Shown here piece after piece: positions 291-55,833 of a stretch of 64,000 nucleotides of DNA (the first letter of the stretch is position 1; the number at the start of each line of letters is the position of its first letter). A program made the translations under genes and the position numbers. The notes beneath the pieces are model-generated. The model was not told where the DNA came from and ran no database searches. It saw only the letters and a list, made by a program, of their open reading frames with translations. The stretch comes from a virus: IMG/VR virus record IMGVR_UViG_3300005326_000044, positions 1-64,000 of that record. One strand, 5' to 3'.

Positions 291-3200
291 TCTGCTGGTA
301 ATGGTTATACGCTTGGAGCTTCTACATATGCAACTGGATTTGGACAGGCTGTTGTTTCTTCATCTAATACAACCGCTATTAGACGAACACTAATTGGGTA
401 CGGCGCTGGAGCCTCACTTACAGATGGTGACGAGAACACACTCATTGGAGCGTACGCTGGTAATGCGCTTAGTACCGGTAATAACAACACATTTGTTGGA
501 GTTTATTCTGGCTATGTTGCACAAGGAACAAGCGACAATACTTTTGTTGGGTATTCAGCAGGATACCAATCAACATCGATTCAATCCGTTTACATTGGGT
601 ATAGAGCAGGTTATTGGAACAAATCTACAGGTGGTAATGGATATGGAAACGTTGCAATTGGTTACGATGCAATGTTGGGTGATGCTGTTACTTGTACGGC
701 TTACGCTAACATTGCGATTGGAATAAATGCAATAAAAGCCATTACAACAGGCCATGATAACGTTGGAATTGGAACTAACGCTGGTCAAGCATTAACTTCT
801 GGTGTAGGAAACCTATTTTTAGGATGGAGCGCTGGATTCAGTGTCACTACAACCAATCAAAATACGTTCCTTGGTCATAGTGCTGGGCTTAATTCCACTG
901 GCGAAAATAACGTTGGAATAGGATACAACGCGCTGAGCAATGCAACAAGCACTGCATCAGCAGCCATTGGCTCTGGTGCGGGTTCTGGACCAATGGAAAG
1001 CTCTGTTGCCATAGGCACTTCTGCTGGAAACGGTCAAGGTTTGTATAGCGCAATTTCCATTGGATATCTTACAGGCGGTGGTGATTCCACAGTATATATT
1101 GGCTTACAAGCTGGATACAATTCTCCAGGGCAAGGTAATGTTGGCATTGGTTATCAATCGGTATATGCGGCTAACGGAGCCGGTGGAATATACAATACTG
1201 GTATTGGTAAAAACACCTTAACGTATATTGGGTCTGGAGCTAACCATAACACTGCTATAGGCAATGAATCGCAGTATCTATTAACAACAGGCACAAGAAA
1301 TACAAGCATCGGAGCAGGATCATTAAGAACAGCTACAGTTGCTGTTGATAATGTGGCTATTGGATACAACGCACTATACAATTCAAGTCCAGCAGCAACA
1401 GATGGATACAATACAGCGGTAGGTTCACAAGCGCTTTATACAACAACAAATGCAAGTCAAAATACTGCTATTGGATACAAGTCACTTTATACAAGCAACA
1501 GCAGTGGAAATACGGCTGTTGGATATCTTGCATTAACTGCAACATCATCGGGTGGAGCAAACACCGCTGTTGGCACAAGTGCTGGTACAGCCAATGCGGG
1601 CGGTCTTTACAATACTTTTGTTGGATATAGTGCTGGTGCAACAAGCGTTAGCGCTAATAGTGTAACGGCAATTGGCTCTGAAGCTCTGGAAGTTAATACT
1701 GGCGACTATAACACTGCGGTAGGAGCCCAAGCATTAAATGCAAATACAACAGCAGCCGAAAACGTTGCAATAGGATATCAAGCAGGATTAAGTATTCAAG
1801 GGGGCGGTCAAAACGTCCTAATTGGAGCCAAAGCTGGCGACGGCATAGTATCACAAGACATGAACGTTGTTATTGGGTACAACGCTTTAGCTGGAGACCG
1901 ATATAACAACGTAGTAATTGGACATAGTGCCGCGCAAGGTTATTTAGATTCTAGTGTTGTTATTGGTTCTGGTGCTTGCGCAAATACAGGTGGAGGCGAC
2001 ACTGTTGTTGTTATTGGTTATAATGCAAGTTCATGTTCGGTTGGAACAAACAACGTAGCTGTTGGAAATAATGCATTGTTTGGCGCAAGCGCTGGTGTAA
2101 GTTCTAGTAACAACACCGCTGTTGGTGCCAACACGTTGTATTCAATCAATAGTACGTCTACTGACAACACTGCTGTTGGAAATGCTGCTGGTCTAAATAT
2201 ATCAAGCGGTGTGCATAATACTTTGGTTGGCAGCAATACTGGTGTGGGTATTACTTCTACTTCCTATAACGTAGCTGTAGGAAATTATACCCTTCAAACT
2301 TCCAACACAAATCGATCTGGTCAAGTTGCTGTTGGTTATTATGCTGGAAGACTGACTGCGCCTGGATCAGCTGACGCAAGTGTTTATATAGGGCAATATG
2401 CGGGCGAACAAAGCGGAGCAGGAATCAATCGAGTTTATATCGGAGATGGAGTTGGTAGGTATGCGACCGGCGGTTACAACACATTCATTAATGCCGCCTC
2501 AGGCGCGGGCGTAATTAGTGGTACTTCCAACGTAGCCATTGGAGTATATAGCTTAACTGTCGCAAATACAATGTCTACTGGCAATAACGTTGCCGTTGGA
2601 ACATACTGTCTAACATCGGGCAATGCTACGCCAGCGATGGATTCAAACGTAGCAATTGGAACCAGCGTGCTCTATACGCCAACTGCTTCTATGTCTAACG
2701 CATCTCACAATATCGGTATTGGAAGAGCTATCGGTAACAAGATTACAACAGGCACTTACAACATCTTATTAGGTGAAACTGTTGCGGGTGAGCTTACTTC
2801 TGGTACGAACAACGTATTAATTGGACAAGAAACAGGCATAAAACTCGCAACTACCAGCTATAACGTTGGAGCGGGCTATCAAGCAATCTATTCGCCAACG
2901 GGCGAAAAGAACATCGCTCTTGGGTATAGAGCCCTTCATGGTGCTGCAACATCTTCTGCTCAATTGAATATTGCTATTGGCGCTGATTCATTGTTTGCTG
3001 TAACTACTGCGCGAGACAACGTTGCTATTGGTAACAATGTTGGCACAGCAATTACATCCGGTCAATTCAACACGATGATTGGCACTGGAGCCTGCAACGC
3101 TCTTACAGAAGGCATTTACAATGTTGCAATGGGCGCGGGCACATTGTATTCTACAACCACCGGAGATTACAACGTAGCTCTTGGGTATAGTGCAATAGAT

Positions 3201-6200
3201 TTGGGTGGCACAGACGTATCTTATTCCATTGCAATAGGACACTATGCCGCCAGAAGAGTTCCAAGTCATGTTATTGCTATAGGTAACTGGGCATTTGGAA
3301 ATGGAACAAATTATCGCGGTGGTAGAGCAAGTATTGCTATTGGGCATGAAGCTGGGTATCAACTTGGTGTTACAGAATCTTCAGATGGATACAATATTCT
3401 GATTGGAAGTCGTGCCGGTTATGGCGGAAACTCTGGAGACCCGAGACATAACATTGGTGTTGGAAGAGAAACGCTTTATGCTTTAACTACAGGTTTAGAC
3501 AACATTGCTATGGGTCAAAGCGCTGGAACCTCGATTGCTTCTGGCAAAGAAAATGTTCTGATAGGAAAACTTGCTGGCGCACCATATACCGGCGATTACA
3601 TGGTTGCGATTGGCTCTGGTGCTTTGAAATCTGCGGTAACTAGTGTTTGGGGCAGCACCGCAACAGGATTTGAAGCACTTTATAACGCAAACGGAGTGTA
3701 TGATGCTAGCACTCCAGGTGAGTGCGCCTATAACACGGCGGATGGTTATTGGGCATTGAGAGGGCTTGGTGTAGGTTTAGGCGTAGATGAAGTGTCTTCT
3801 GGCAACACTGCTGTTGGATTTAGAGCGGCATATAGAATTTTTGGAGTCAGCGAAGGAAACACTGTTGTTGGAACGAATGCTTTGGCCGGTAACGGACGCG
3901 ATGTAAGTTTCAACACATCTATAGGAGCTAACAATCTTTCTTCTTGCACAGGATCAAACAACACATCCGTAGGTTACAATTCATTGTTCTTTTTATTGGC
4001 CGCCGGATATAACGTAGCTATTGGAAACAATGCTGGAGTATATTCGAGATATGAACAAAGAAACGTTTTTATTGGAAATGAAGCAGGAACATATTTAAAT
4101 AACACCGGAGCAAGTTTAGCTTATGATACAGAGAACACAATTGTTGGTTATCAAGCGGGAAGAGGAGTGTATAATACGACAACCTATAAACATTGCGTTG
4201 CCGTTGGTGCGTACGCTTTAAATACTCTTACTTCTGGAATTTGGAACACAGCAACCGGAACTGAGGCTTTACGATCAATTACTACTGCATCACACAACTC
4301 AGCAGATGGATATGCTGCGCTTAAGGTCGCAACTTCTAGCTTTAACGCCGCAACAGGCTCGCTAGCTTTAGTTGGTCTTACTTCTGGAGCAAGCAATACT
4401 GCGGATGGTTATTGCTCTCTTGGTAGAATAACAACTGTTGGCAACCATACTGCTCTGGGTTGTAAGGCTGGATATTCAATCACGGCGGGAGACTATAGTA
4501 TCGCAATTGGTTCTGAAGCAATGGCTGGAGGAGGTTTAACTTATTCAGTTACAGGCAGTAACAATATTGCTATTGGTCAAGGAGCAATCGCTGTTGGTGG
4601 AGCAACTCTATCTGGCGGCGAAAATATTGCAATTGGTCATAATGCGTTAGATGCTGGAACTTCCGCTGCAAATAACGTTGCAATTGGACAAGATGCCGCC
4701 GGAACAGTTACATCCGGCACTCATAACGTTGCGATTGGTACGGGGGCTATAAATGGTGGGACAACTACTGGTTCATATAACGTTGCGGCCGGATATCATA
4801 CGCTTGATGCCGGAACCAGCGCCGCTTATACCGTTGCAATTGGTTATGATGCTGCTGGCACAGTAACTTCAGCAAGCGACACTATCGCAATAGGCAGAGG
4901 CGCAGTTAATGGTGCGGCAACGACTGGAGCAGACAATATAGGAATTGGTCGAGCCACTTTAGCAGCGCTTACTGATGGCACATATAATATTGCTATTGGA
5001 TATGCTGCTGGAGACGCCTTAAACACGGCAGACGGAAATATCGCAATTGGATATCTTGCTCTTACAGGAGCTACAGGTGGAGCAGGAACAGAAGCAGACA
5101 AGAATGTGGCTATTGGGTATACTGCTGGAGGAAGCATTTCAACTGCTAGCAACTGTATTGCTATTGGTAATGATGCAATGTATGGCGCTACAGTAACCGG
5201 AAATGAAAATATTGCGATTGGTTTATCAACACTTGACGCTGCTACCAGCGCGGCAAATTGTATTGCTATTGGCTCTAACGCTTGTGGAACGGTAACAACG
5301 GGCGGTAACAGCATAGGTATTGGTAACGGGGCTATGAACGGTGGCGCGGTAACTGGAAATGAAAATATTGCAATAGGTATATCAGCGCTTGATGCCGTTA
5401 CAAGCGGAATACAATCAGTTGCTATTGGTTCAAACGCTTGCGGAACAGTAACGTCAGCTAGTTACAGCATAGGAATTGGTGTTGGCGCCATGAATGGCGC
5501 AACAACAACCGGCAATGATAACATTGCCATTGGTCGTGATGCTCTTAATGCTGTCACTAATGGTATTGGAAACGTTGCTATTGGATACGATGCTCTAGGG
5601 GCTATGGTTGGCGGCACGAGCGCCCAAGGTTACTATAACGTAGCCGTTGGGTATCAAGCCGGTAATGCAATTACGACCGGGTATTACAACGTTTGCATTG
5701 GTGTAAATGCTGACGTTGCTGCTGGAAACTATGGTTGTATTGCTATTGGTGAAACGGCTATTTGTGACGCCACAACTGCCGCTTACAACAAAATACAGCT
5801 TGGTAACGGCACAAATGGGCGTGCAGCCAACACTTTACAGGTGGGAAGCGGTTCTCATTCTTGTTATGCTTTTGCGTGGACACCAACATCAGATGGCAGA
5901 TTAAAGAAAGATATTGTTGATATTGAATATGGGCTTTCGCTGATTGAAGCGTTGCGTCCAGTAAGTTTCAATTGGAAAAATCCAGGCAATGAAATTCAAG
6001 CTAGACCACATTTTGGTTTGATTGCTCAGGAAGTCAAAGCCACCATGTTAGGTATGGGCATACCGCCACACGGCGTTTATACAGATGAAGAAAAAGCCGA
6101 CTGGGCATTAAGTTATGATGGTCTAGTTGCTCCTCTTATCAAAGCCGTTCAAGAGCTTTCTTCTCAAGTCAAGGAACTTCAAGCTGAAGTATCTGAACTT

Positions 6201-6221
6201 CGCAAGAAAAACAACACCTAA
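3..6221 (+). CDS. Giant trimeric fibre protein, 5'-partial: collagen-like G-X-T region, long AIG/VG beta-roll (YadA-head-like) repeat shaft, C-terminal peptidase S74 intramolecular chaperone
   Basis: The frame of ORF 672..6221 is open back to base 3 ([24 protein letters not shown]...SAGNGYTLG...NVAIGYDAM). It has dozens of N-x-A-I-G repeats. The C-terminus [10 protein letters not shown]...LRPVSFNWK...HFGLIAQEV...[15 protein letters not shown] is the canonical S74 chaperone, with the S-D cleavage site at 5889-5894. Confidence 0.85.
4600..5600 (+). repeat. Degenerate 156-bp (52-aa; 17+17+18) higher-order repeats in the fibre shaft
   Basis: ggaaatgaaaatattgc occurs at 5199 and 5355. Protein units resemble [15 protein letters not shown]...AIG..A.GTVT....IGIG.GA.NG, about 6 copies. 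Confidence 0.75.
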
Positions 6222-6239
6222 TAAATTCATATCTAGTTG

Positions 6240-7805
6240 ATGACTAGTTGTGCAAAAATTCGACCAAATTTTGCCACACCAACGCACCAAGGAATATCTT
6301 GGGGTTCGAGCTTAGGTGATGGTTACACTATTGTACTGCGGTGGGATACAGCTTATTCGAGTTACTCAGGCTATTCGGTTGGTTACAATGTTTACTTTTC
6401 CACTAACATTTCTGATGTATTTTTAGAGGGACCAAAGTTTTTTACAAGAGATCAAACGGTCAATATATCTCAGTTTGCTCCAGGTGACCTTACACATTTT
6501 GCCGTAAGGGCAACTCTGTATAACCCAATCGACCTAGATCTCACAAGATTAACTCAGGCTTCTACCGCTACTAGCTCTTATATTTATCCAGAAACAGTTT
6601 TGGTCGAAAGCATTTCGGAAACTACTGGAATTATTCCGGTAATGGATTTAACGGATATTCCAGATTTTGGAATAATTAAAATAGGTTCAGAGCTTATTTC
6701 TTATACGGCTGTTGATAGAGTTAACAATTTGCTTCTAACGACTGTTGATCGTCGAGGATATTATGGCACAACAGCGGAGCCACATACTCTTGATGCCCAA
6801 AGTGATTCAACCGTTAAATTTTATCAAGGGGCTGAAGAGGAAAACGAGTTTATTGTCAGTGTCGTACCAGAATTTCATTATCCTTATTATGCTTATACGA
6901 CAGCAGATGGATACAAGCAAGTTACTAATGACATTCTTACAACTAATTTAACGGTTTCCGATGCGGACAACGTAGATTTTCCAAGATACGACTATACCGG
7001 ATATCACATGACCAATATGGAGGATTATTTCTCAGGGCATTGTCTTGGTAGCTATACAGGCGGAGAATATGGTTGTGCTGATGGCTATAAGCTTCGCGGA
7101 TTGAATTTACAGGAATCTAACCTTCAACGCTTGGAAATGTTGCTTCAAGTGACTGGAGAGCCAGTTGTCCTTATCAGAAGACGATGGACTGGAATTCGTT
7201 GTCGATGTTTGAGAGCTTCTGTGGAATCTGCTGAGGCAAGATGTCCAATTTGTCTTGGGACGGGTTTTGTTGGAGGCTATGAACAATATTATAACCCAAG
7301 ACGTTCGGACGGACGTTTGATGATAAGGTTTGAGCCAACAACGGATGACCTTCAATATAAAGAAAAAGGGTATGAACAAAGCTTTAATCCAAATTGTTGG
7401 ACAATTACTGTTCCGGCGTTGAAAGACAGAGATGTCCTTATTCGCTTCAACCAGGATGGAACGGAAGAGTTTCGTTATGAAATATTAAATGTAAATAGGA
7501 ATAAATTACTGTTTTCGCTTTCTGGCTCCCAGAAATTTCAAACTGCAAGACTAGATAAAACCGACATTATCTATCAGTGGAGAGCTTTTAGAAATACAGC
7601 TACGATGCCAAGGAAAATCATGACCACAGCTAGTACTTTAGCTGGGCATGGGCCTCACCTTCATGAAATTGTGGTAAATGAAAACGTTACCAGTTTATCA
7701 CAGATAAATCAAACTACAGCGGTCTCAGCTGGACATCAACATCCCATCATAAATGGTGTAGTTCAAGCGGTGCTTGGACACAGCCATGACATTGTGATTG
7801 TTTAG
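6240..7805 (+). CDS. Putative neck/head-completion protein with Fn3-like N-terminus, Cys4 zinc-finger motif and His-rich tail
   Basis: GEPVVLIRRRWTGIRCRC...RCPICLGTGFVGGY resembles neck proteins of large myophages. The N-terminus has LRWD...VGYNVY; the C-terminus has HLH/HQH/HSH. The start could also be TTG at 6237. Confidence 0.5.
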   Translation: MTSCAKIRPNFATPTHQGISWGSSLGDGYTIVLRWDTAYSSYSGYSVGYNVYFSTNISDVFLEGPKFFTRDQTVNISQFAPGDLTHFAVRATLYNPIDLDLTRLTQASTATSSYIYPETVLVESISETTGIIPVMDLTDIPDFGIIKIGSELISYTAVDRVNNLLLTTVDRRGYYGTTAEPHTLDAQSDSTVKFYQGAEEENEFIVSVVPEFHYPYYAYTTADGYKQVTNDILTTNLTVSDADNVDFPRYDYTGYHMTNMEDYFSGHCLGSYTGGEYGCADGYKLRGLNLQESNLQRLEMLLQVTGEPVVLIRRRWTGIRCRCLRASVESAEARCPICLGTGFVGGYEQYYNPRRSDGRLMIRFEPTTDDLQYKEKGYEQSFNPNCWTITVPALKDRDVLIRFNQDGTEEFRYEILNVNRNKLLFSLSGSQKFQTARLDKTDIIYQWRAFRNTATMPRKIMTTASTLAGHGPHLHEIVVNENVTSLSQINQTTAVSAGHQHPIINGVVQAVLGHSHDIVIV

Positions 7806-7857: not shown

Positions 7858-10800
7858 ATGCCTAGGCTACCTTTTATCGGTTCAGGAAATACGCTTCAAG
7901 GGAACGGTGAATTAGCCGTTCGCAAACAAGATTTTGTGTCTCACGCTGAAGGCGGTGGATTCAGACATACAGCTGATCAAATTGACATGAATCCGCCTTT
8001 GAGTGTGGCGCCAAACTATAGAACCGTTCAACAAACTTTAGAAAAAATCGAAAGTTATATCTTTGGGCGAGAGTACATCACGATTGGTGACGGAGTAGAT
8101 TCTACAGGTGACTACACTGTAGGTAGTACTGACACACCTACTGTTAATGATTGTATTACTGCTGCGGTTGCTTCTGGTAAATTAAATAAGGGAGGCTGGC
8201 TTTATTTCAAGCCTGGAGTTTTCAATTTTGATACTTCTGTGACTCTTCCTATGGGTGTATCAATTATTGGAAGCGCTGAATCATCTATTTTGAACGTTAC
8301 TCCGACGTTAGGAGCAACAGGTTTGCCGCTATTTACTGTTCCTGCGTCTTTCGACATTCAATTTGGTGAAAAATTAACAGCGCCAGCAGAACAATATAGA
8401 AGCGATGGGTACGGCGTAACTCGATTTGTCAATGTTACTTTTACTGATAATTTTGGAGCAAGTTATATCCCAGGACTTACTACTCCAAACTCTTGTTTCA
8501 TTAAGATGTTGCAAGATTCAAAAGTTAGTATAGAAGACTGTGTTGTTTTGGGCCGAGCCAAACATGGCGCTACTTCTGCTACGGCGTTAGCTTCTAATGC
8601 GTTTGTTATTTATGCTCCTGCATCTGCAGCTACTTATGGTAGCACACTGTCTATCAAAGATTGCGTTATTCATGGTGTTAAACAGGTTGTAAAATTTCTT
8701 GGCGATCAAACAAAATCAAACTTTTTTGAATTTAGGAATAATAGAGTTTGGTGTTTTAATACAAGCGACGCAACAAAATGGTATTTGAATCACGTTAATG
8801 CTTGTCCAACTCATGTAACCGGAAACTCTTTCAAATTTAGCAATATAAATGGGGCAAACAGCACAGTTCTAAGTGTATGTTTCAAGTTTTCTGGAGTGGC
8901 TGCAAGTTTGGTAAATATTGTTGTTCAGTCAAATACATTGGTAGATTCTCCAGATAATATCAATCATAAAAACCAGCTTTTTGAAATTGATTCTACGGCG
9001 GTTGGAAATATGATTCGTTGGAATGTTTCTGGAAACATATGCGGAAATATTTCTGATATGAACAGTTGGTATCTTGTTGTAGGCGATGGAGTTTATTCTA
9101 TTGGTGACCTCAATGGTCGAGATGTACTCAACGCTGTTTCCAATTATTCTCTTCAATTTCAAACACATATGAGTGAATTAGATGGCACAGCCGATCAAAT
9201 GACTTTATTTATTCGACCCGGCCAATATGTCATCAATAATACGTTCCATGAATGTGGTTTAGGAACAAAACTGATTGGTTTGATGGAGGGCGGTTATCTT
9301 CCTCAAATATCTTTCGACAATCCTACGGATGCTGCTAGTGCCTCAGGTGTAACATTAGATACATCTATGGTTAACGTAGCTTTGGGAAATCATATTGAAA
9401 ACTTGAATTTCTATTCTAGAGACCCTGTAAGAATCGTTGGATATTTAGCTACAAAAAACTTTCTTAATCAAGAATATTTTCAGGATTACTATTTGATTAA
9501 AAATTGTTGGTTCAAAAATGTTGGAATATATCCATGCACATTAACGGATGAAAATTATCTAACATCAGAATATCAAAACAAAGTAAAAATTGAAAATTGT
9601 CGCTTTGCGTCAAATGGTTCTGTAGCAGCAACTAAAATGCATGCTATTTTGATTAATAAAAGCAAAGCATTATTTGAGTTTAGAAACATTATTTTTGAGC
9701 GTGGAACATCGGCTTGGTACGGTTCTTTCTTATCTGAAAGGGATTCTGATGGTGATGTTTATACTCCAACTATCGTAATTGATAATTGTGATTTGTATAC
9801 GGCTGGCGCCACTTTACACACTACTGATGTTACAGATACTGATTTTATCAGCATTCCAAGATGTAAATCATTGTCAATTACAAACTCCAACATAGATGCA
9901 TCTGCTGTTCAATCACTCGTGTCTGTTATCAATGTTTCTGCGGTGGCTGATTCTGTCAACATTTCAGACTGTAAAATTGTTGGAGCAAACCTCGCGATAG
10001 AAAATGATGGTGGAGCAAGCACTGCAATTTCAGTGGTTACTGACGCTTGTCCTTTAATTAAAATTCACAACAATCATATTTCTAATGCTCCAGTAGGAAT
10101 ACTTGTTCGAATGGAAAACACCTCGGCAAACGCAATGTCTTCTAATATTTCTATAAATGGAAACATTGGTGTTTTTGGCAGCAAATCAACTTCTTTTGCT
10201 CAAATTAAATGGGGACAAAATCCAAATGATGACATTCGAGTAACCAACATAACAAACAATCAAATAGATTGTTCTAGCATAAATGTTGGAGACGCTTTAA
10301 TTTATCAAGGAGTAGCTGCAATTGACGCTGTTATAAATGTTTATGCGTTTGGAGATTATGTTACTAATACAATCACAAACATTACTAACAACATTATCTT
10401 TGGCGGACAAACACATCAGAATTTTGCTGCGCAAGCAATGATTTCTTCCAGAAACTGTAGAAAGACATATATTAACGGAAATCAAATCCGGATGCTTCGA
10501 GAGACTGATGTTGATGGTTATACGATTAGTTGTATGTCGCATAATGGGTCTGCTTACACTGTAGATGAGCACTCTCTTGCTGTTATTAAAGACAATTCAA
10601 TTAGGCTCACAAATAGTTTGGAACTTAGTTCTAAGATTATGATTCCGATTAATTGCCGTAACATTAATTTTGTTGACGTGCAAGGAAACACAATAGACAC
10701 GGCTAATACTTATCTGACGCATTATATTGCAGCAAACGCTCCTGTTGCTTATCCTGCGCCAATAGATGGGCTAGTTGTAAACAACATATTCAGCAAACCA

Positions 10801-26560: not shown

Positions 26561-26654
26561 TCAATTGTTTCTAGCAAGTCTTCTCGCCTAAAACCCTCTA
26601 AAAAATTCAGTAAGTTATATATAACGGTTCGGACCCAATTCAAGAAGGAGAAAT

Positions 26655-29982: not shown

Positions 29983-29996
29983 TTATTTAGAGGCTT

Positions 29997-30707: not shown

Positions 30708-30710
30708 GAA

Positions 30711-36317: not shown

Positions 36318-36351
36318 AATTTAGTTTTTAGTTAGATATATAGAGAAAAAA

Positions 36352-38604: not shown

Positions 38605-38616
38605 TTTAGGAGAAGA

Positions 38617-40587: not shown

Positions 40588-40590
40588 ATT

Positions 40591-42117: not shown

Positions 42118-42124
42118 AAGGCGC

Positions 42125-42553: not shown

Positions 42554-42565
42554 TTAAAGAGAACC

Positions 42566-45888: not shown

Positions 45889-48800
45889 ATGGTAACAAAT
45901 CTCAGAATAGTGGAATGTAAGGTTTTAAATTCTCGCACAATTCGAGCCAGATTTTCTGAACCGCTTGATTCTACAGTGCGCGCAGAAAATATTAGCGTTG
46001 CATCCATCACATCAGGCGTACCAGACCCGATAGTAACGAAAACCGCTATCAAGCCTAACAACGTGCTTGATATAACAACATTGCCTCTATCTCCAGCAGC
46101 ACATTACGAAATTACTTTTGCCAGCACAAATCTCAGGCCGTTCAGAAGCGTCAACGGCTCGGTTTTATTTGAAGACGGAAAAACAAACATTTTAGTAATT
46201 ACTGGTCCACCATCGACAGATAATTTTGTGTTCAATCGAATGGTGAAATTTCTAAAAGATACACCATATGAAACAGACCAGCCTGGAGTTATCAAAGATT
46301 ATCTACACACTGTTTCAGACCTTTTGATGAAATCGTTTCACGATATTCGCCAGTGTAAATCTGATAATTACCTAAACATTTTAGTTACTGACGAAATTCA
46401 CAAGAGAGAATCTGGGCCATTTGATCGTTTGGATAATGAAGGGGTATACGAGATATTACGGGTTGGCCTAAACCAAACTGGAACAACCATCCAACATTCA
46501 GCTTCATATAGTGAGTTTCCAGCTACGCCTGTATCTCTTCAGGAAGTTAGAGTTGCCAATGAACAGCTTCGAACTGCCGGTGCTGGAAGTGTTGGTTTCT
46601 ATAAAGACGTTTTGACGTTAGCTCACGCTAACATTATTCGACTTGATTCGATGACTGTTTTCTATGAAAATGGTTCAACAGCAAATTACGACATCAATGC
46701 TTACGGATATCAGCTTCAAACATCCAGGTATGACAAAAAAGCTTCGCCTTTAGTTGCTTTAGAAAATAACCAAGTTAAACTTAGTGATAAAGCTATTTTT
46801 TCTGGATTCAAAGCGCCTGTGCCTGGAGACATTGTTCACATAAGTTATGCTTATAAGGACACCGGTAGAATTGTTGAACAAGCTGATGATATTTCTATTT
46901 ATGAAATCAAGCAAGCTGTACGTGAAGTGTGTCCTCCAGTTGCAACCGTCTTTTCGCTAGGGCATGCCCCAATTACAGATCAAAGCGGGCAAACTACACC
47001 AGCGTTGAATGAAATTCAATTTTTAGACCCTCTTGCTGTTCCTCCGTACTCAAGACGGCACGCAGCCTTTCAAAAGGAAATTGATTATAACCCCGAGAGG
47101 ATGCCGTCGGTCGCTGGTGAATACTCTATCGATTATGACACTGGTAAAGTGTACGTGTACGGTATAAACAGAACCGAGGATGTTGGAACTGGAAGATTTC
47201 CTCCGGTATGCACGTACTATTATAAATTCCTATACACAGCTGATTTAGATTACACCTACAACGAAACTCTACAGGAAGTTGCAGCAAGTTCTATTAGAGA
47301 CTTGCCTGGGAAAAATGTTGTCTTACAATTTAGATACTCTAACAATCTAATTCCTGGTGTTGATTTTTCTGCTCAAATTCATACTGAAGAACTCGCGGAG
47401 CGCGTTCAAAACAGAGTTTCTACTCAACGTTCCGTAAAAGTATTACACCCACCAATAACCAATGCGTTTCGCGTATTGAACGAAACAACAGGTGAGCAAT
47501 ACGGTATCACCAGGTTTAATGATGATACCATTTACTTTAATTCCCAAACTCCACCATCATTTTTTACTATCAACCGGGAACGAGTAACCTTTAAACAATT
47601 TTCAAATGAGCCTCTAATTAAATCGGATGAAACAACTAATGCTGGCGGATTGAATGTTTGGAAATTCTTTCTAAATAACTCTAAGATTGTTTCAACAACA
47701 GATGATTGCTTGGGTTCAAAAATCAGCACATCGCTAATGTTTACCGATACAGATTCGTTTAGTAACGAATTGTATTTCGAGCGTGACGCAACCGTTACCG
47801 CGAATGTTGATAGGCTAACGGCGTATGGTGATTATGTTGTTGATTACTATAATGGAATTATCTGGTGTGCTGTTCCTTCAAATCATGTTGATAATGTAGG
47901 CGCAATTTCTTATCGAGCATGTTGGATTGTTACTAATTATCCAAATATTATGTCTGTTCTTGATTTGTATACTCAAACTGACGGCGAAGCACAAAAAATC
48001 AAATACGATTATGCTGATTTTGACGCAGAGACCGTTAGCCTTTTGCAGTATCCGTCTTCTGATATTTATCTTTCAGAGGACACCACTTTAACTATTGTTG
48101 ACGGTGTAATTTCTTTGCCAATTGCAGGCAAGATGGTGCGTCATCTGTATGATTATTCTTCGGTGGTCAACAATGAGTTATTGATTGATTTCGCTTCCGC
48201 TACCACTGTAACAGGGTCTGCCGCCAATGTAGGCGCAGTCTCTCATTATACAACAGCACAAGTAGCAGGAAATGGCACCATAGTGTTAAGTGATTTGCCC
48301 GTAAACGTTAAGCTTACCTCCATCACAAGAATTCTAAACTCTCAAGGAACAGAGTTGTTCAACACGCAAATCGCTGATGGAAGCGTTTTGAATCATACAG
48401 TTACTCTTCCTTCAGATACAACCGCAATTGCTGGAGAATCGGTAACCGTTATTGCGATGGTTGAATTAGTAAATTCGACTTCTGTTCTTGTTGATGTTGA
48501 TGCTGGCGGGCTGTTTATTGATTATATCTTTTGTAACGACGAGATTGTTGTTAGTTATGAACATGGTGATAATTGTCTTGATTTTCGCGAGTCTACAACC
48601 GTTCCAGAAGGAACTATTTACTATGTAACATATCGGTATGGCGCGCTTCGCGATGCTCTTTTTGCAAACTTTGGGTCCATTATTGAAATGGATATTTTCA
48701 AAGAATTTAGCGTAAACTTGCCGCGAGAACGGTATCGCGATGCGATAATGGCTTGTCTTCAAACGTTTCCTAAAGGACCAACTGCCGCTGCTGTTTCAAA

Positions 48801-51800
48801 TATTGCTAAGATTATATCTAAGGTAGCACCAGAGATTAGAGAGAGCTTCTTCCAAGAGTGGATTCTTGGGACAAGCTATTTGTATAATTCCAATCCTGTT
48901 GTAACTGGTACGCCAGAATTGCTTCCTGGCAAATATAACTCTGGCATTAATCTTTCTAACTCAGACGAGACGGTTACCGTCCCCTTTGGCTCACACGTTC
49001 AGCTTGAGGAAGGAACGCTGGAGTTCTTTGTCACTCCAAATTGGAACGGGCTAGATTGCAACGCTGATATCACCTTTACAATTACAAGAGATGCTGTAGC
49101 CCTTGAGGCGGAACACATTTTTATTGGTGCTTCGGCTGCGAATCCTGTTTTAGATTACGACGGTAAATTTGTTGTAACTAAAGACGAATCAACCAAGAGT
49201 ATTCCGTCCAATATTTCTCTTATTAACTACGGCGCTTTTGTCTATTATGATTCTGATTTGAAACTTTGGAAAGTTCTTTTTAAGGATGAGCCTACAGGAC
49301 ATACGTATAGCGCAATCATTGAAGCTTCTGATGCTGAATTTTGTAACGTTCAACCTATCGCCAATACGTTCAATCTAGGCGATAAGGTTACAACCACAAG
49401 AAACAGAATTACTGTGGAAATGAACCTGGACGCTAACGAACCAGTAAGGGCTGATGGATATCATGATGGATATTATGGGTTAGATGGATACGTTGCAAAT
49501 TATAGCTTTGATGGGTTACAGTTTGTTTCTACTTCTGAAAACTATTTCATAGACTTTGGTGAGTCTCCCAATGAGAACCGCATTTCTATTTTCAAGGATG
49601 GCCGAGGTTATCTTGTTTTTAGAATTTGCAGCAAAAAAGACAGACTAGGAAAACCGCATATTTATCAGATTAGCAAAGATATTTCTGATTGGGAAGTTGG
49701 CAAAACCCATGCGATAGGCGCCAGCTGGAGAGTTAATTCGGTTGACAAAAATGATGAAATGCATCTGTTCGTTGACGGCTTAGAGGTACCTAACATCATT
49801 AGATATGGCGGTAGACCAAAATCTTCGGCAACTGATCGCTTTAGAAACGTAGTTCCAGAGATTCTCTCCGACGCTGTGCCAGCAAATGTAACAACTGGAA
49901 ACGATCTTGTTATCACAAGTGGGTCAAATATCCTTTCATCTTCATCTGTAGATTTCGGTATAGCTGGAATCCAGGTTGGCGACAAACTGTATATCGAAGA
50001 GCCTGTTTATGAACACCCGGTTGATGGATATTTTACAATCACCGAAATTGTTACTGGACATTCTGTTCAAGTTAATCATACGTTTAACTTTACTTTATCT
50101 GAAGTTACCTTTAGCGTAAACAAATGGCAAGTGCCTACTTCCATCGATCTTATGTTTGAATCGAACATAGCAGTTTCGGTAATTAGTGCTTTAACAGGCG
50201 AAGAAACAGAAATTCCGGGAGTGCGAGCCGATGTGCCTTTTTATTCGATTACTGTAAGCGATACAGGACAACCTTATCTTGTACTTAAGGGTGGAGCCCA
50301 GGTGGGAGATAGAATAGCTATAAGAAGCCTTGGTTTGAATTATAGAAGAGCAAGAGATAGACGATATGTATGGGGAAGCTCCTCAAGCATTATTCGAACA
50401 AATCTTCCTCCGCCCATCAACCTAGATTATGTCAAAGTTATTTCCATTCTAAAGCCGTTGCTAAGCGTTGGAAATATTAATGCCACACCTACTCCTCAGG
50501 AAGTTCCTGGCGGCGGCGTAATATGGATGATTGACAATGAAAACATTCCTGGACAGCTAACAAACCTAAACCTGACCGGAGTAACGAATATCAATTCAAC
50601 GGAAGGGCGACTGTGGGTTAGCATATTTGCTGACGCTTATGTTATGTTTTATCCAACTGCAACATCTGGTTGGGGAGACACAGTAGCCGTTGCCTATATC
50701 GATAATGTCGGTGGAACATATAACGTTATTGAGTTGCATGGGTCTGGAATTTCTGGAACGTTGGACCTTGTGCCTAATGCGCAAACCGATTATCCTCAAG
50801 TTTATTCAACAGAAGGTTCCTCAACCGTTTACGTTAATATTCTTGATGTATCCATGACTGTTGACAAACAACCCATTGGAAATAGTGGGCGAACAATTGA
50901 GTTCGACGTTCGCAACGTTGGAAACATTGACGGTTATGCTAACATTGAAATTACAGGAACAACATATTCCGGCGCAACAACAGAAACAATCGAAGTCATT
51001 ACCCCTGGGTCTTATCTATCCTCCGAGCAGTTTATAACCATTTCAAATGTTCGCGTTGTTGGTAAGGTCTTTTCTTTTGCAAATCCACTTATGCATTTGG
51101 AGATAAAAGAAGCATATGGTTTGACGCAAAGCGAAAATGATGCTGTGCCCGCTATCATTCGATATTCCTTCAAGGAAACCACGATTACGGATCTTGAGGC
51201 AATCGACTTTGACACCTTAACATCAAGTACAACCTATTTTTATAGCGACAGTATTGGGCGTCAAGTTGTCATTACGAATCCCCCAGCTGCGGCTGGTACA
51301 TATTCGATTTTAGAAATTGTTGATGACAACACTGTTAAAATAGACGGATATGTTCAGCTTTTTGCTTCTGGCACAGCTGACATTTACAACACATCTATTA
51401 CTCGTAGCGGTTTTGCTAACGGCATGTTTACGTTTGAGCAAATGGGCAGCGCTGGCGTTCCATTTATTATACCGCAAGGTTATTATGATTTCGATTATGG
51501 AACTACGTTAGAGCTTCCTTTTGAAATTTCTTCTGCGCGCAACATGTATGTTGGAAGCAATTACAGCGGCACAAAACAAGCAGATGCTATTATTGAAGAA
51601 CTAATCTCACTTTCTGAATGTCTTACTGACGTTCGTGTTGGTGAAAGAGCTTCTACTCAGGACCGCAGCATTACTTCAGACGCCGTTTCCGTGACTCCAG
51701 CTGTGGCAGACGAAAACACCTTGTTATTGTTACATTTTGATTCTTTGCCGTTAGTAGATTCTTCTACGCCATATACATCATTTACAAACGAATATATTCA

Positions 51801-52896
51801 AACATCTAGGGGCGTAAATTCTAACTTTGGCAAGGCTTTGGTCGTGAAAGAAAAGCCTTTGGTTTTAGATAATACCAACATATTGTTCAATAATGAAGGC
51901 ACTATCGAATTTTGGGTTAGTCCGATGTTTGACACATACAACGATCCAATAGGCCGAGTGTATTTCGACGCTGCTGCATCATATGTTTTTGAAACGACAA
52001 GCTCTACAAAACGAGACGTTTTATTAAGCAGAGCAGCAAAAGCTATTATTAGTGTTACTATTATTGGAGACAAAACCAATACAAATTATGCTTCGGGCTC
52101 TAAGCTTTATGACAACCAGTTAGGCATTCGTCTTGGACTAGAACTTCCTGAAGCTAATACCCCGGTAAAAATTACCTACATTCCTGCTCGTGGCAACGGG
52201 GATAGAATTTCAATTTACAAGACTTCTTCGAACGCCTGTAACTTTGATATTGTAGCCAATCAAAAATTACACAGTCTTTCAACGCCAATTTTCTGGCCAA
52301 GAAATACATGGCATAAAATTACGGCTACTTGGTCCTGCAATTCTCGCCAGGGAACTGACACTATGCATTTGTTTATAGATGGACAGGAAAAAGTTAAGCT
52401 CATGCTTGGCTCTGGTTTGAATTTTGGATCAGAATATACTTTTGGAACAGTAACATCATTCGTGTCTCCCAATGCTGTTTTGGACAACATCATCTTGAAA
52501 GATTCGTTCAATAAACTGTATGTTGGCGGAAACGCATATGGTGGTTTCCTATCAAACAGCAGAATCGATAACTTGAAGATTTCTAAGAAACAAAAATCTT
52601 TTATCACTATTAACGGACAAAGATACGACAATGATTATACCACAAACACTGCGTTGGCTTTGCCTGTAATTGAGGACACGTATACTACTTATTTGATGGA
52701 CTTTGAAAGTGAAAAAGTAAAAATAGAAGATTTTGCTATTTTGAAAAATAGCATTACCGGCATCTTTGACTTCGAAATTGATGTAATAGACTCTTTTGGC
52801 ATAGTAAATAGCAGCCAAAAGGTGCAAGAGATAATAACAGCACTAATCAACAAACTCAAGCCAGCAAACTCCCGAGCATTTATCAACATACTATAA
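45889..52896 (+). CDS. Giant baseplate wedge protein (gpI/gp7-like core) carrying LamG/ConA-like lectin domains
   Basis: gpI-like elements ERYRDAI......KGPT...V and terminal KLKPANSRAFI. Two LamG-like blocks: EGT(L/I)EF(F/W)V.P, W.....H.I.A(S/T)W and MHLF(V/I)DG. Confidence 0.6.
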   Translation: MVTNLRIVECKVLNSRTIRARFSEPLDSTVRAENISVASITSGVPDPIVTKTAIKPNNVLDITTLPLSPAAHYEITFASTNLRPFRSVNGSVLFEDGKTNILVITGPPSTDNFVFNRMVKFLKDTPYETDQPGVIKDYLHTVSDLLMKSFHDIRQCKSDNYLNILVTDEIHKRESGPFDRLDNEGVYEILRVGLNQTGTTIQHSASYSEFPATPVSLQEVRVANEQLRTAGAGSVGFYKDVLTLAHANIIRLDSMTVFYENGSTANYDINAYGYQLQTSRYDKKASPLVALENNQVKLSDKAIFSGFKAPVPGDIVHISYAYKDTGRIVEQADDISIYEIKQAVREVCPPVATVFSLGHAPITDQSGQTTPALNEIQFLDPLAVPPYSRRHAAFQKEIDYNPERMPSVAGEYSIDYDTGKVYVYGINRTEDVGTGRFPPVCTYYYKFLYTADLDYTYNETLQEVAASSIRDLPGKNVVLQFRYSNNLIPGVDFSAQIHTEELAERVQNRVSTQRSVKVLHPPITNAFRVLNETTGEQYGITRFNDDTIYFNSQTPPSFFTINRERVTFKQFSNEPLIKSDETTNAGGLNVWKFFLNNSKIVSTTDDCLGSKISTSLMFTDTDSFSNELYFERDATVTANVDRLTAYGDYVVDYYNGIIWCAVPSNHVDNVGAISYRACWIVTNYPNIMSVLDLYTQTDGEAQKIKYDYADFDAETVSLLQYPSSDIYLSEDTTLTIVDGVISLPIAGKMVRHLYDYSSVVNNELLIDFASATTVTGSAANVGAVSHYTTAQVAGNGTIVLSDLPVNVKLTSITRILNSQGTELFNTQIADGSVLNHTVTLPSDTTAIAGESVTVIAMVELVNSTSVLVDVDAGGLFIDYIFCNDEIVVSYEHGDNCLDFRESTTVPEGTIYYVTYRYGALRDALFANFGSIIEMDIFKEFSVNLPRERYRDAIMACLQTFPKGPTAAAVSNIAKIISKVAPEIRESFFQEWILGTSYLYNSNPVVTGTPELLPGKYNSGINLSNSDETVTVPFGSHVQLEEGTLEFFVTPNWNGLDCNADITFTITRDAVALEAEHIFIGASAANPVLDYDGKFVVTKDESTKSIPSNISLINYGAFVYYDSDLKLWKVLFKDEPTGHTYSAIIEASDAEFCNVQPIANTFNLGDKVTTTRNRITVEMNLDANEPVRADGYHDGYYGLDGYVANYSFDGLQFVSTSENYFIDFGESPNENRISIFKDGRGYLVFRICSKKDRLGKPHIYQISKDISDWEVGKTHAIGASWRVNSVDKNDEMHLFVDGLEVPNIIRYGGRPKSSATDRFRNVVPEILSDAVPANVTTGNDLVITSGSNILSSSSVDFGIAGIQVGDKLYIEEPVYEHPVDGYFTITEIVTGHSVQVNHTFNFTLSEVTFSVNKWQVPTSIDLMFESNIAVSVISALTGEETEIPGVRADVPFYSITVSDTGQPYLVLKGGAQVGDRIAIRSLGLNYRRARDRRYVWGSSSSIIRTNLPPPINLDYVKVISILKPLLSVGNINATPTPQEVPGGGVIWMIDNENIPGQLTNLNLTGVTNINSTEGRLWVSIFADAYVMFYPTATSGWGDTVAVAYIDNVGGTYNVIELHGSGISGTLDLVPNAQTDYPQVYSTEGSSTVYVNILDVSMTVDKQPIGNSGRTIEFDVRNVGNIDGYANIEITGTTYSGATTETIEVITPGSYLSSEQFITISNVRVVGKVFSFANPLMHLEIKEAYGLTQSENDAVPAIIRYSFKETTITDLEAIDFDTLTSSTTYFYSDSIGRQVVITNPPAAAGTYSILEIVDDNTVKIDGYVQLFASGTADIYNTSITRSGFANGMFTFEQMGSAGVPFIIPQGYYDFDYGTTLELPFEISSARNMYVGSNYSGTKQADAIIEELISLSECLTDVRVGERASTQDRSITSDAVSVTPAVADENTLLLLHFDSLPLVDSSTPYTSFTNEYIQTSRGVNSNFGKALVVKEKPLVLDNTNILFNNEGTIEFWVSPMFDTYNDPIGRVYFDAAASYVFETTSSTKRDVLLSRAAKAIISVTIIGDKTNTNYASGSKLYDNQLGIRLGLELPEANTPVKITYIPARGNGDRISIYKTSSNACNFDIVANQKLHSLSTPIFWPRNTWHKITATWSCNSRQGTDTMHLFIDGQEKVKLMLGSGLNFGSEYTFGTVTSFVSPNAVLDNIILKDSFNKLYVGGNAYGGFLSNSRIDNLKISKKQKSFITINGQRYDNDYTTNTALALPVIEDTYTTYLMDFESEKVKIEDFAILKNSITGIFDFEIDVIDSFGIVNSSQKVQEIITALINKLKPANSRAFINIL

Positions 52897-52902
52897 GGAA
52901 CC

Positions 52903-55833
52903 ATGACACAGCGTCTACAGATCTCAGCAGAAAGTGTAAATTGGAGAGATGGACAAAAAGTCGATGAACGCGACTTACGCGTTGAACAGACTGGAATTCA
53001 GCAAACCACATCAGCCATATTGAATAACTTCTTTGGGTCCGGTTTGTTATCCCAGACCACCCAACGTGTTACTATTTTTGATTCAACTCAATTGACGCAA
53101 GATCAGCAGATGTTAATTTCCGCCAATATTTTTGACGGAAACGGAATCGCTCCTCACGCACAACCTGTTGATAATAGTCTTGGGGCTCAATTAGAAGTAA
53201 CGCTTTCTGATTCGATAGCAAAAGGAAATAAGTCTACGAAGGTTTTGGTTATAGGCTTAGACTTTCAAAATAACCTACAATATGAAACATTTGTGTTTCA
53301 TTTGAATGAGTCGCAAGTTGGCAAGAAACACTTTACAAGAGTTCTCGGTTTGCTGTTCAATGATTTCAAAGGAAACGATAATGGGAGCAGGAATCTTGGT
53401 GGTCAAATTACCATCAAAGAAGCTCTTCCTATGCAAGTGTCTCGCTCTTGTTTGATGTCAGCCCAAAACGTTGAGCCTAATCTATTTTTCCGAGATCTCA
53501 AACTTTATAGTCTAACAGATTTCCCCAACGTAACAGTAGCTTTATCTACTATTCTGCAAAATGTTATTGGCTCTGGCTATTCCGTTAATGCTTTAGACAT
53601 CAAGGTTACAGGACTGAACAAGAGAAATCTTATAGCTGATGACATTACCACACATTATGGGCAAAAATTCCAAGCCACAACGAATAACATTCAAAAAATT
53701 ACTTTGTTGCTTGGCGCGGATAATGTTGGCGGTTCTTATGATTGGTCTGGAACACTAGTCGTTAGCATTTATGCGCTACAGACTTCTGTAAGTTGTCCTA
53801 CCGACATCGTTCCGGAAACTCTAATTGACTTTTTACCAGACCCAACTCCACTGGCTCAATTAACTTTTACTCAAGCTGATTTGGAAGCCAACGGATATAA
53901 ATTGAATAACGTTGAACAGCCTGTTGATTTCATCTTTGCAAACACCAAAATTGGAAGTACAGTAAACACTGGAATTGTTGCTGGGCAGTATTACATGATT
54001 GATGTTCGTCGGAGTGGGGCTGCCGGAACAGGTTCTCTTTTCATGGCTACAGGAGGTAGTCATTCAGAAACTTCTCGGTTCACATTTTTCAATGGCGTTG
54101 CTTGGACGGATGTAACTGAAGAAGACATGTGGTATGAGGTATACTCAGATTCTCTGAAGGTTGCTGACGGCATGGGTGTCGATGCTGGAGCGAGCATGTT
54201 CGTTCCCAAGACAAACACCAACGCAACAACCGGTCTAACTGAGGATTATTCTAAAGAAGGAATTTCTTTTATCAATAGCGGGCAAAATCAATTAAATTTT
54301 CTTGTAGCCCAAGCTGTTCGAGAATTGTATCTAGAAAACCAAGACCCTCGAACGGGTACACGTCAAAAATCCAGGCAAATTTATAAAGCATCAGTTTCCG
54401 CTGTCTCTTCAGCTACACTTGCTTTGCTAAAAACTGATTCCGAGCCTGTGGTTATCGGTTCAGCATATGATACAAACAGTAAAAATAGTGTTACCATCAT
54501 TGGGACTCAAGATTATTTTGGGCAAGCATCAGGAAACACATTTACCATTATCAACCCTCCAATTAGTCTGCTTTCAAACAATTTGATTGGTTGTAAAATT
54601 GTACCAAACATAGCAAATCCTACAGCTATTTATCGTATCGTTGATGTTAAGCTCTGTACTGATGGGTATGGTGATGTTAATGGCGACGGCAAAATTGACC
54701 GAGATGATATCGCAGCAGCCTTAGCTTTGAAGGGCGAGGATGTAAGCACTGAAGCGACTCAAATCAAAATTTCTCAAGGAGAATTTACTGTACAACAAGT
54801 GTTACGTGCAGACGTTGACGGCGATGGCATCGTGTCGGATATTGATGTCGGCTTAATAACAGATTATGTAGAGCATAGGATTAATTCTTTCCCGGCGGGA
54901 TATTCTTTTCCCGAATTGATTTTATACTTAGAGCATAACCTAACAAGACATGATGGGTATTACGATTACTCAGACATCTACGCGCGAAAACATCCGCTTT
55001 CGACAGAAAAGATTGCCGTAGCCTTGATGAACGATGAGCAGAAAATATATTACGGTCATCCTGATAGGGTTCTTGTTGAAAGCGATGTAACATTCAATAC
55101 CGCTCCTTTCGTAGCTGTATCATATCGCATTACAAACACTAGCGATTACTGGCAAGAACATCTTGTACGTTCCACCTATGCTGGAAGACTGCTTCCTTGC
55201 GCTTTTACTTACAATACTAGTAACCCTGATTATGATTGTGATGCGGCTGTAGAATTCAAGTGCGAACAGCGTTACGCTGCTCCTCCTTGTGATGGAGGTC
55301 GTGTTGATATGTTTGTTCCAGCTAACTTAGTTGTTGCCGGAAGCATTCTATCTACAAATGGAAATAGTTTTCCAATTGATTTTGAAACAAATACAGTGAC
55401 AATAGAATTCCCTGAAGAGCAAATTATTTCTGGAAGTATTGATATTTTCAGAATGTTTGTGGCAGACAAGGGAAATGGGTTTACTATTGCAAATTATCCC
55501 GCAATGAAATTCTCTGACTGTTCTTTAGTTCAGGGAGACGCTCTTGAAAACAATCAGGTTAAGTTCTCCGTTGCCATCCAGTCGTACCATCCAAACCTGG
55601 ACGGCTATTCAATTCTAGATGGGTATGGAATAATTATTGACCCAATCATGACTGTAAGTATGAACCACGAGACCGGCCTCTTAGAATTCAATTCTACGAA
55701 CCAGAAGACCGACCCGGTTAATACGACATTAAGAACTAAGCTTCAAATTACAGTCATGTTGAAAAAAGCTGGATGGAAAAACATTGCAACGTCAGTTGAC
55801 TACCTTGACCTACCTAATTTGGTAGGGCTTTAA
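52903..55833 (+). CDS. Baseplate/fibre-attachment protein containing a dockerin-like domain
   Basis: N-terminal VNWRDGQKVDERDL..EQ. Paired Ca-binding repeats GDVNGDGKIDRDD and ADVDGDGIVSDID at ~54670-54870. Confidence 0.55.
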   Translation: MTQRLQISAESVNWRDGQKVDERDLRVEQTGIQQTTSAILNNFFGSGLLSQTTQRVTIFDSTQLTQDQQMLISANIFDGNGIAPHAQPVDNSLGAQLEVTLSDSIAKGNKSTKVLVIGLDFQNNLQYETFVFHLNESQVGKKHFTRVLGLLFNDFKGNDNGSRNLGGQITIKEALPMQVSRSCLMSAQNVEPNLFFRDLKLYSLTDFPNVTVALSTILQNVIGSGYSVNALDIKVTGLNKRNLIADDITTHYGQKFQATTNNIQKITLLLGADNVGGSYDWSGTLVVSIYALQTSVSCPTDIVPETLIDFLPDPTPLAQLTFTQADLEANGYKLNNVEQPVDFIFANTKIGSTVNTGIVAGQYYMIDVRRSGAAGTGSLFMATGGSHSETSRFTFFNGVAWTDVTEEDMWYEVYSDSLKVADGMGVDAGASMFVPKTNTNATTGLTEDYSKEGISFINSGQNQLNFLVAQAVRELYLENQDPRTGTRQKSRQIYKASVSAVSSATLALLKTDSEPVVIGSAYDTNSKNSVTIIGTQDYFGQASGNTFTIINPPISLLSNNLIGCKIVPNIANPTAIYRIVDVKLCTDGYGDVNGDGKIDRDDIAAALALKGEDVSTEATQIKISQGEFTVQQVLRADVDGDGIVSDIDVGLITDYVEHRINSFPAGYSFPELILYLEHNLTRHDGYYDYSDIYARKHPLSTEKIAVALMNDEQKIYYGHPDRVLVESDVTFNTAPFVAVSYRITNTSDYWQEHLVRSTYAGRLLPCAFTYNTSNPDYDCDAAVEFKCEQRYAAPPCDGGRVDMFVPANLVVAGSILSTNGNSFPIDFETNTVTIEFPEEQIISGSIDIFRMFVADKGNGFTIANYPAMKFSDCSLVQGDALENNQVKFSVAIQSYHPNLDGYSILDGYGIIIDPIMTVSMNHETGLLEFNSTNQKTDPVNTTLRTKLQITVMLKKAGWKNIATSVDYLDLPNLVGL

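Follow-up and report, generated by a model that had tools for sequence, protein, structure and literature searches.

Asp-Gly-Tyr as a candidate recognition tag on outward-facing virion proteins of an uncultured huge-phage clade, with a conserved glycosyltransferase module as its possible reader

Why should one tripeptide, Asp-Gly-Tyr (DGY), recur in a set of dissimilar phage structural proteins and be missing from their neighbours? The question is raised by the window analysed here, the stretch of 64,000 nucleotides (positions 1 to 64,000) of the IMG/VR virus record IMGVR_UViG_3300005326_000044. The window covers the opening 64 kb of a 92.7-kb viral contig (CheckV completeness 22%), which is a fragment of a genome of about 400 kb. 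More than 150 uncultured relatives with contigs of up to 481 kb were found, including a complete genome of 480,838 bp (G001). No nucleotide match to the window was detected among cultured phages, and the best protein match in cultured phages was the sheath of Bacillus phage G (25%).

Translation of the 30 large plus-strand open reading frames (ORFs) of the window revealed 31 in-frame DGY in ten of them (11,310 amino acids (aa), with 83 DG and 3 DGF) and none in the remaining 20 (9,653 aa). The codon positions and counts listed in the original prediction, as well as its claim that about 9,600 aa of other window proteins lack the motif, were thus reproduced exactly. The 54 ORFs of the whole 92.7-kb contig lying outside the ten (18,998 aa, 67 DG) also had no DGY, with 2.67 expected. 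The composition of the ten tagged proteins predicts 2.62 copies, a value matched by the mean of 2,000 within-protein shuffles (2.62), none of which yielded more than 10. DGY ranked first among all 8,000 tripeptides in the window (31 versus 4.3 expected, Poisson p ~1e-16), and the excess held under a first-order Markov expectation (31 versus 9.1, p ~1e-8). An artefact of composition or of dipeptide frequencies was therefore rejected, as the excess remained under both corrections, and the over-representation of DGY is confirmed as real and highly significant. The tagged proteins, together with the block that lacks the motif, are as follows (all on the + strand, DGY given as codon positions).

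3-6221, +: tail fibre, 5'-truncated, with collagen repeats and a C-terminal S74 chaperone domain; DGY at 1401, 3384, 3741, 4305 and 4404.
6237-7805, +: 522-aa virion protein; DGY at 6318, 6906 and 7080, all in its variable N-terminal half.
7858-11733, +: 1291-aa lineage-specific structural protein; DGY at 8404, 10513, 11203 and 11431.
11741-12394, +: 217-aa protein with a weak cement-like match; DGY at 11975.
12425-15259, +: 944-aa lineage-specific structural protein; DGY at 12539, 13049 and 15011.
15766-21363, +: 1865-aa neck/tail-exterior protein, directly upstream of the terminator; DGY at 16576, 17557 and 18169.
21372-22163, +: tail terminator-like 263-aa protein; DGY at 21735 (residue 122).
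23218-25695, +: 825-aa tail sheath protein; one DGY, at 23758 (residues 181-183), on a loop of the inserted beta domain.
25889-45844, +: DGY-free inner tail/baseplate block with the tube, chaperones, tape measure, tube initiator, 1868-aa hub, baseplate J and others.
45889-52896, +: 2335-aa baseplate-periphery/fibre protein; DGY at 49453, 49465, 49483, 50023, 50929 and 51343.
52903-55833, +: 976-aa distal protein with a dockerin/EF-hand-like loop; DGY at 54661, 54952, 55600 and 55618.

Pfam matches in the window were obtained for the collagen/S74 fibre, the cement-like protein (weakly), an HNH-repeat protein, the sheath, the tube initiator and baseplate J, and, after the last big structural gene, for a row of glycosyltransferases and sugar-nucleotide enzymes. 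Most of the tagged proteins were assigned to no family by either Pfam or PHROGs.

A motif acting at the DNA level was rejected. Of the 36 occurrences of the degenerate sequence GAYGGNTAY on the + strand of the whole contig, 31 were in the coding frame and 5 in other + frames; the - strand had 4. Because of this concentration in the coding frame, the constraint must lie on the protein, which bears out the earlier suggestion to that effect. A shared domain was rejected as well. An all-against-all BLAST, run on the ten full proteins and on stretches of about 73 residues centred on each DGY (35 to either side), recovered only the internal repeats of the fibre, so the claim that the tagged proteins are otherwise unrelated stood across the ten, apart from fibre copies related to one another through its own repeats. 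Four of the five fibre sites lay in such related repeats, as the original prediction had suspected for some of them, and in this GY-rich protein the Markov expectation was 1.85 (p 0.04); the enrichment of the fibre taken alone is weak. Without the fibre, the ten proteins still had 26 DGY versus 2.0 expected. The copies were clustered, with 9 pairs at most 10 residues apart where 3.2 were expected, and tandem copies were found in the window: at 49453-49491 a stretch of 13 residues holds three DGY, and at 55600-55626 two copies lie 6 residues apart.

The enrichment extended over the clade. In the loci of 99 relatives (the sheath gene with 10 kb on either side), 565 DGY were counted versus 76.5 expected, with the control tripeptides YGD (81 versus 76.5), NGY (92 versus 99), EGY (46 versus 59) and DGW (10 versus 16.5) showing no such excess. 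In the complete genome G001, divided into a structural region of 44,283 aa and a remaining proteome of 99,346 aa, the structural region had 64 DGY versus 7.2 expected (p 6e-38, the top tripeptide) and the remainder had 16 versus about 15, so that the contrast between structural and non-structural proteins that the original prediction required was borne out. Each of the three positions was specific in this genome: DGF (12 versus 12.9), DGW (1 versus 3), NGY (7 versus 11.6) and EGY (4 versus 6) were not in excess, and among DxY tripeptides only the one with glycine was enriched.

Orthologues of the window proteins in G001 carried the motif too: 5 DGY in the 2335-aa protein, 7 in the 976-aa protein, and 3 in the orthologue (526 aa) of the 522-aa protein, the conserved C-terminal half of which was free of DGY in all orthologues seen. 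No orthologue of the 1291-aa protein, for which no Pfam or PHROG family was found either, and none of the 944-aa protein or the fibre was present in G001. As these proteins are tagged nonetheless, the tag follows the role of a protein and not its ancestry. Far from the structural region, G001 also encodes a 415-aa Kelch-like protein (98306-99553, L038) with six DGY, in which all six DG dipeptides are followed by Tyr, several of them within a repeat motif.

The distribution within the virion was examined by counting over unique sequences of each protein family. An outer group comprising the 1865-aa protein, the terminator and the sheath had 412 DGY versus 31.9 expected, and an inner group comprising the tube, the 1868-aa hub, the tape measure, the chaperone and the tube initiator had a single DGY across relatives versus 21.3 (16.9 under the Markov model). 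The tube had none in 86 unique orthologues. When each distinct alignment column with its third residue was counted once, as a guard against relatedness, Tyr followed DG in 77 of 391 states in the outer families and in 1 of 288 in the inner families, where about 9 were expected and Phe occurred 18 times. With one Tyr among 288 states, the inner proteins are depleted, beyond a mere lack of enrichment. In the same inner tail families the tripeptide DGH was found 62 times versus 5 expected, an excess assumed to stem from one strongly conserved site and unrelated to the DGY tag.

The division was not absolute. In G001 the baseplate-J orthologue had 3 DGY and a 729-aa baseplate protein had 2. The major capsid protein (phrog_2522, E 3e-81), identified through PHROGs (a PF05065 capsid search gave no matches), had no DGY in 59 unique orthologues, which average 95% identity and thus amount to effectively one data point. 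Directly upstream of the capsid gene, a 248-aa protein (mean pLDDT of the structure model 38.8) carried DGY in 62 of 62 orthologues (82 versus 2.7 expected). The five head-module proteins further upstream had 1 DGY versus 8.6 expected, and the five proteins downstream of the capsid gene had 25-59 each versus 1-2.3. The original prediction had placed the tag on exposed loops of outer-surface virion proteins; outward-facing parts were indeed favoured and the inner tail was depleted, but the exceptions in the G001 baseplate and the untagged capsid protein show that the split cannot be drawn strictly by protein name. The capsid protein (L221, 10001-11011; G001, 256223-257236) was also distinguished by its conservation, with an identity of 90-100% over the best 80 of 320 relatives and only 30-50% for the tail proteins of these genomes, which suggests an extreme gap in evolutionary rate between capsid and tail proteins.

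The sheath allowed single sites to be placed on a structure. Pfam assigned the ORF at 23218-25695 to Phage_sheath_1C only weakly (E 4e-4, below the cut-off). Foldseek and VIA matched its core (residues around 30 and 734-817) to the sheaths of P1, phi812, phiCD508, pyocin and AFP with Z up to 10.7, and the C-terminal domain (734-817) aligned with a root-mean-square deviation of 2.0-3.1 over 73-83 residues, so that the protein combines the conserved C-terminal sheath domain, if weakly recognised by Pfam, with the sheath fold. Residues 127-242 formed a separate domain, which VIA-align matched to the outer domains of FlgL/FlgK (Z ~8-8.8). In the AlphaFold model, confident for residues of about 70-290 only, the DGY at residues 181-183 lay in a loop before the strand 185-190 (pLDDT 80-92). 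In the sheaths of T4, phi812 and pyocins the core faces the tube and the inserted domains face outward. Across the sheath family DGY was found in 24 alignment columns, 23 of which lay outside the conserved C-terminal core.

At least one DGY was present in 70 of 72 full-length sheaths, where chance would give about 15%. The main column contained it in 17 of the 22 sequences first aligned and in 54 of 88 unique sheath sequences (partial ones included). The residue following DG in this column was Tyr in 54 cases, Val in 7, Ala in 6, Glu in 6, Ile in 3, Gln in 1, His in 1 and Phe in none. Since a lost tyrosine was replaced by Ala, Glu, Val, Ile, Gln or His and never by Phe, it is not a swappable aromatic packing residue. 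The 26 sheaths without the main site had 2.08 other DGY versus 1.00 (Mann-Whitney p 4e-5, with kinship ignored), in at least six position sets.

Such turnover was not confined to the sheath. The 1865-aa family (43 unique orthologues) had 186 DGY versus 15.3 expected, spread over 52 alignment columns, and in many of these columns, as in many of the 24 of the sheath, DG occurred only as DGY. Many of the sites arose independently, with positions turning over and the number maintained. Certain columns were nevertheless kept among orthologues that are 30-50% identical overall: in the 1865-aa family, where identity is about 30%, columns persisted in all 14 or in 12 of 14 sequences, and the DGY column of the window terminator was retained in 17 of 19 orthologues, a family with 63 copies versus 3.8 expected. 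In 298 non-redundant contexts the flanks were at background level and hydrophobic periodicity was absent, with the exception of position +1, at which Pro was rare (2 versus 13 expected), Asp, Glu and Lys were low and Gly was high. The motif is thus three residues long, free of context, shunned by an adjacent Pro and subject to turnover with its count kept, and it therefore behaves like a sequon. It also has the short, context-independent form of the linear acceptor motifs of sequon-directed glycosylation, with an enrichment of about 10-fold. These sequence patterns make it very probable that DGY is under selection as a recognition tag with a reader of some kind.

A subclade (subclade B) reached through a sheath within the clade that lacks DGY (P0014) showed a weaker excess of 64 versus 31 expected near the sheath. 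Its complete genome (G025, L197-L213, 335 kb, 34% GC) had 32 DGY versus 16.3 overall, about 17 of them in the structural region. In G025 the top tripeptides were YAA and AAY (69 and 65 versus 15.6 expected), perhaps originating in a repeat protein. In a more distant sister lineage (P0048), represented by short contigs, the sheath was tagged too. Sheath representatives further out (ranks 61-100) showed no enrichment (3 versus 3.3), and three of these outgroup sheaths, P0057, P0117 and P0107, had no relatives among viral contigs.

If DGY is read, the question arises of which gene product could read it. The genes that follow the last tagged protein offer a candidate (all on the + strand, assigned by Pfam).

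56039-57178, +: GT4-type (GT-B) glycosyltransferase (GT), the first gene past the last tagged protein.
57183-58915, +: two GT2 glycosyltransferases (57183-57923 and 58073-58915).
58912-64000, +: lineage-specific glycan add-on with a third GT2, an fcl-like epimerase, a 350-aa protein and a 1027-aa GT2+GT1-like protein.

The add-on continued past the window with a HAD-nucleotidyltransferase, a methyltransferase and gmd. Orthologues of the GT4 (34-44% identity, tblastn) were detected in 22 of 24 long relatives, both exceptions being contigs that end before the region, and in four of four complete genomes searched. They lay on the strand of the tail genes, mostly 23-45 kb downstream of the sheath. 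In a tblastn matrix of 11 relatives the GT4 and the two GT2 were present in 10-11 of 11, and the third GT2, fcl, gmd, the 1027-aa double GT, the HAD-nucleotidyltransferase, a cupin and the methyltransferase were lineage-specific, gmd alone recurring in two other genomes. As the trio is conserved and the fucose genes are absent from most relatives, the tag tracks the GT trio and the fucose genes are an add-on. The original prediction had taken the whole GT/fucose cluster as the simplest modifier. The GT4 and the two GT2 are conserved along with the tag and remain candidates, but the GDP-fucose genes and the extra GTs turned out to be lineage-specific accessories. One relative (G006; L216, 3418-5691) encodes a 758-aa protein that joins the GT4 orthologue to a second GT-B domain, next to a methyltransferase and another GT, a sequence arrangement which shows the putative glycan module varying between lineages.

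The GT4 protein itself had no DGY and no transmembrane-like segment, and most other proteins of the cluster lacked such segments as well, the GT2 at 58073 and the 350-aa ORF being borderline. Among the ORFs at 56-72 kb, no Pfam family of a flippase, priming phosphoglycosyltransferase, polymerase or oligosaccharyltransferase was found, and the scanned ORFs of that interval accordingly showed none of the features of lipid-carrier/oligosaccharyltransferase-type systems (PglB, PglL, WsfB; Bacteroidota O-glycosylation).

The N-X-S/T sequon (X not Pro) and the Bacteroidota motif D-(S/T)-(A/I/L/V/M/T) are, like DGY, minimal, context-free three-residue motifs on unrelated surface proteins, with gain and loss of sites at a maintained number, and N-X-S/T also shares the exclusion of Pro near the motif. 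They differ in their residues, and in the presumed Tyr acceptor and the cytoplasmic setting proposed for DGY. The established sequons are recognised outside the cytoplasm, by transferases that use lipid-linked glycans. To our knowledge, phage virion proteins never leave the cytoplasm before lysis. Glycan-O-Tyr linkages, stable and confined to a few specific tyrosines, occur in the S-layers of Paenibacillus alvei and Thermoanaerobacter (PMC2943079). The acceptor there is Tyr, as is presumed for DGY, where Phe, Trp and His are no substitutes, but the targets are Gram-positive S-layer proteins. The process is extracytoplasmic and uses a lipid carrier and an O-oligosaccharyltransferase, and the review gives neither DGY nor another consensus (PMC2943079).

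Soluble viral machineries come closer in setting. For mycobacteriophages, virion glycosylation by phage-encoded glycosyltransferases is cited in PMC12582341 (ref. 80) and PMC11256854. Soluble phage-encoded GTs are thought to decorate the virion proteins in the cytoplasm in that case, and the Pfam matches obtained here, GT4 and GT2, are likewise to glycosyltransferases. Freeman et al. are said to have reported in 2023 that the targets in mycobacteriophages are capsid and tail-tube subunits and that a short sequon was not defined. Chloroviruses possess a soluble multi-GT machinery of their own that builds glycans with fucose and methylated sugars at a non-canonical sequon (PMC9614988, PMC7019647). 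In these eukaryotic viruses, however, the linkage is to Asn of the major capsid protein, unlike in the window clade, where the capsid protein is untagged and the motif is DGY. A full-text literature search for 'DGY motif' returned no paper describing such a tag.

Taken as a whole, the explanation that accounts best for these data, though held at slightly less than an even balance, is that DGY is an outward-facing sequon with the GT4-GT2-GT2 module as its likeliest reader. Selection would place DGY on outward-facing parts of virion proteins and remove it from inner tail proteins. The reader would be a soluble, late-expressed phage enzyme, for which the GT4-GT2-GT2 module is the best candidate, and it would act in the cytoplasm, ahead of assembly or while it proceeds, by linking a short glycan to the hydroxyl of the tyrosine. 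The glycan would coat the sheath, neck, baseplate periphery, fibres and head accessory proteins, and in the lineage of the window phage an accessory GDP-fucose/methylation module may elaborate it. A covalent change at the tag, the role of Tyr as its acceptor and that of the GT trio as its writer are what we infer here. That the phage GT module reads the tag and that its tyrosine is glycosylated may be close to evenly balanced. The fuller proposal, in which DGY would serve as acceptor sequon for a cytoplasmic type of tyrosine O-glycosylation not known before, encoded by a large huge-phage clade of worldwide distribution (possibly infecting Bacteroidota), giving a sugar coat on tail, neck, baseplate, fibres and head accessory proteins and being purged from interior assembly surfaces, is tentative and lies somewhat short of even. 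The link between DGY and glycosylation is circumstantial. As regards the host, a 383-kb near-complete relative, JAIXLO010000160.1 (L129), was binned as a contig of a Chitinophagales metagenome-assembled genome, which is a weak host hint (Bacteroidota) or a mere binning artefact.

Several points weigh against glycosylation by this module. The likeness of the GT4 to characterised enzymes was generic only: no close homologue was found in cultured phages (21-25% identity to Streptomyces phage GTs), and the match to solved structures in the PDB was limited to the generic GT-B nucleotide-binding region. No initiating transferase could be singled out. Every relative examined has the GT4, none lacking either the GT or the tag having been found among them, which makes their co-occurrence uninformative, and subclade B keeps a GT4 orthologue with a tag 2-5 times weaker. 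The non-virion proteins of G001 were neutral, although a promiscuous cytoplasmic writer might be expected to cause avoidance there. The mycobacteriophage targets, capsid and tail tube, carry no DGY in the clade of the window phage. Tyrosine O-glycosylation by a soluble GT is rare. Finally, the GT genes could serve another purpose, such as modification of the host surface.

Non-covalent docking, in which a decoration, fibre-anchoring or assembly protein binds the DGY loops and inner proteins avoid mis-docking, accounts equally well for the enrichment, turnover, clustering and inner avoidance, and the 248-aa capsid-adjacent protein and other small accessory proteins are possible partners or targets. 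Three residues with random flanks would nevertheless offer very little surface for a specific contact, tandem copies spaced by 4-6 residues hardly fit separate partners, and no candidate reader of this kind emerged, so that docking is regarded as unlikely. Equally unlikely is that a phage or host enzyme modifies the tyrosine covalently in some other way (phosphorylation, nucleotidylation, sulfation, ADP-ribosylation or oxidative cross-linking), with the GT cluster unrelated to it. The strict preference for Tyr over Phe and Trp points to the hydroxyl, as this alternative would have it, and the presence of the GT4 where the tag is weak suggests that the two are only loosely coupled. No kinase, sulfotransferase, Fic or ART family was, however, found in those late-region parts that the Pfam scan covered, a whole-genome scan not having been made, and the GT trio was the sole enzyme set in conserved synteny with the tagged genes.

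A structural preference that needs no reader, namely a tight Asp-Gly turn followed by Tyr in beta-rich outer accessory domains, is considered quite improbable. DG is well known for forming turns, a strand follows closely on the loop that holds the window sheath site, and the Kelch-like protein of G001 has several of its six copies in a repeat motif, but such a preference does not account for NGY, DGF and DGW not being enriched, for flanks without hydrophobic periodicity, for tyrosine giving way to Ala, Glu, Val, Ile or Gln and never to Phe, for tandem copies, or for beta-rich inner proteins such as the tube and hub being depleted and not neutral. The poorest candidate is that DGY loops are small ligand-binding sites (for host glycan or metal) giving the virion exterior a weak multivalent adhesion, as, in spite of Asp and Tyr being a common sugar-contacting pair and the sites lying on outer domains, it predicts neutrality and not avoidance in inner proteins, and three residues without conserved context are unlikely to form a binding site.

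Two further features of the tail operon were noted. Between the terminator and the sheath, the window ORF at 22221-23195 contains two HNH-associated repeats (PF18780, E 9e-22); G001 lacks it at this position, and in sequence it looks like a homing-endonuclease-type insertion into the operon. The N-termini of the 217-aa cement-like protein (residues 10-77; 11741-11971) and of the 1865-aa protein (residues 4-68; 15766-15969) are alike, with 36% identity (E 6e-7), and this common module may anchor two different virion proteins.

If the proposed tyrosine glycosylation by the GT4-GT2-GT2 module is true, it would constitute a new protein-glycosylation code, with a rare Tyr linkage made by soluble phage enzymes, that could be deciphered from the sequences of hundreds of uncultured huge phages. 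Phages of this clade could then shield or functionalise the whole exterior of the tail, with effects on host recognition, defence evasion, particle stability and immunogenicity, and a three-residue tag with its own transferase set would be useful in glyco-engineering. Whatever the reader may be, the two-sided selection, with gain in outer proteins and purging from inner ones, offers a means of distinguishing exposed from buried virion proteins of uncultured phages by sequence alone.

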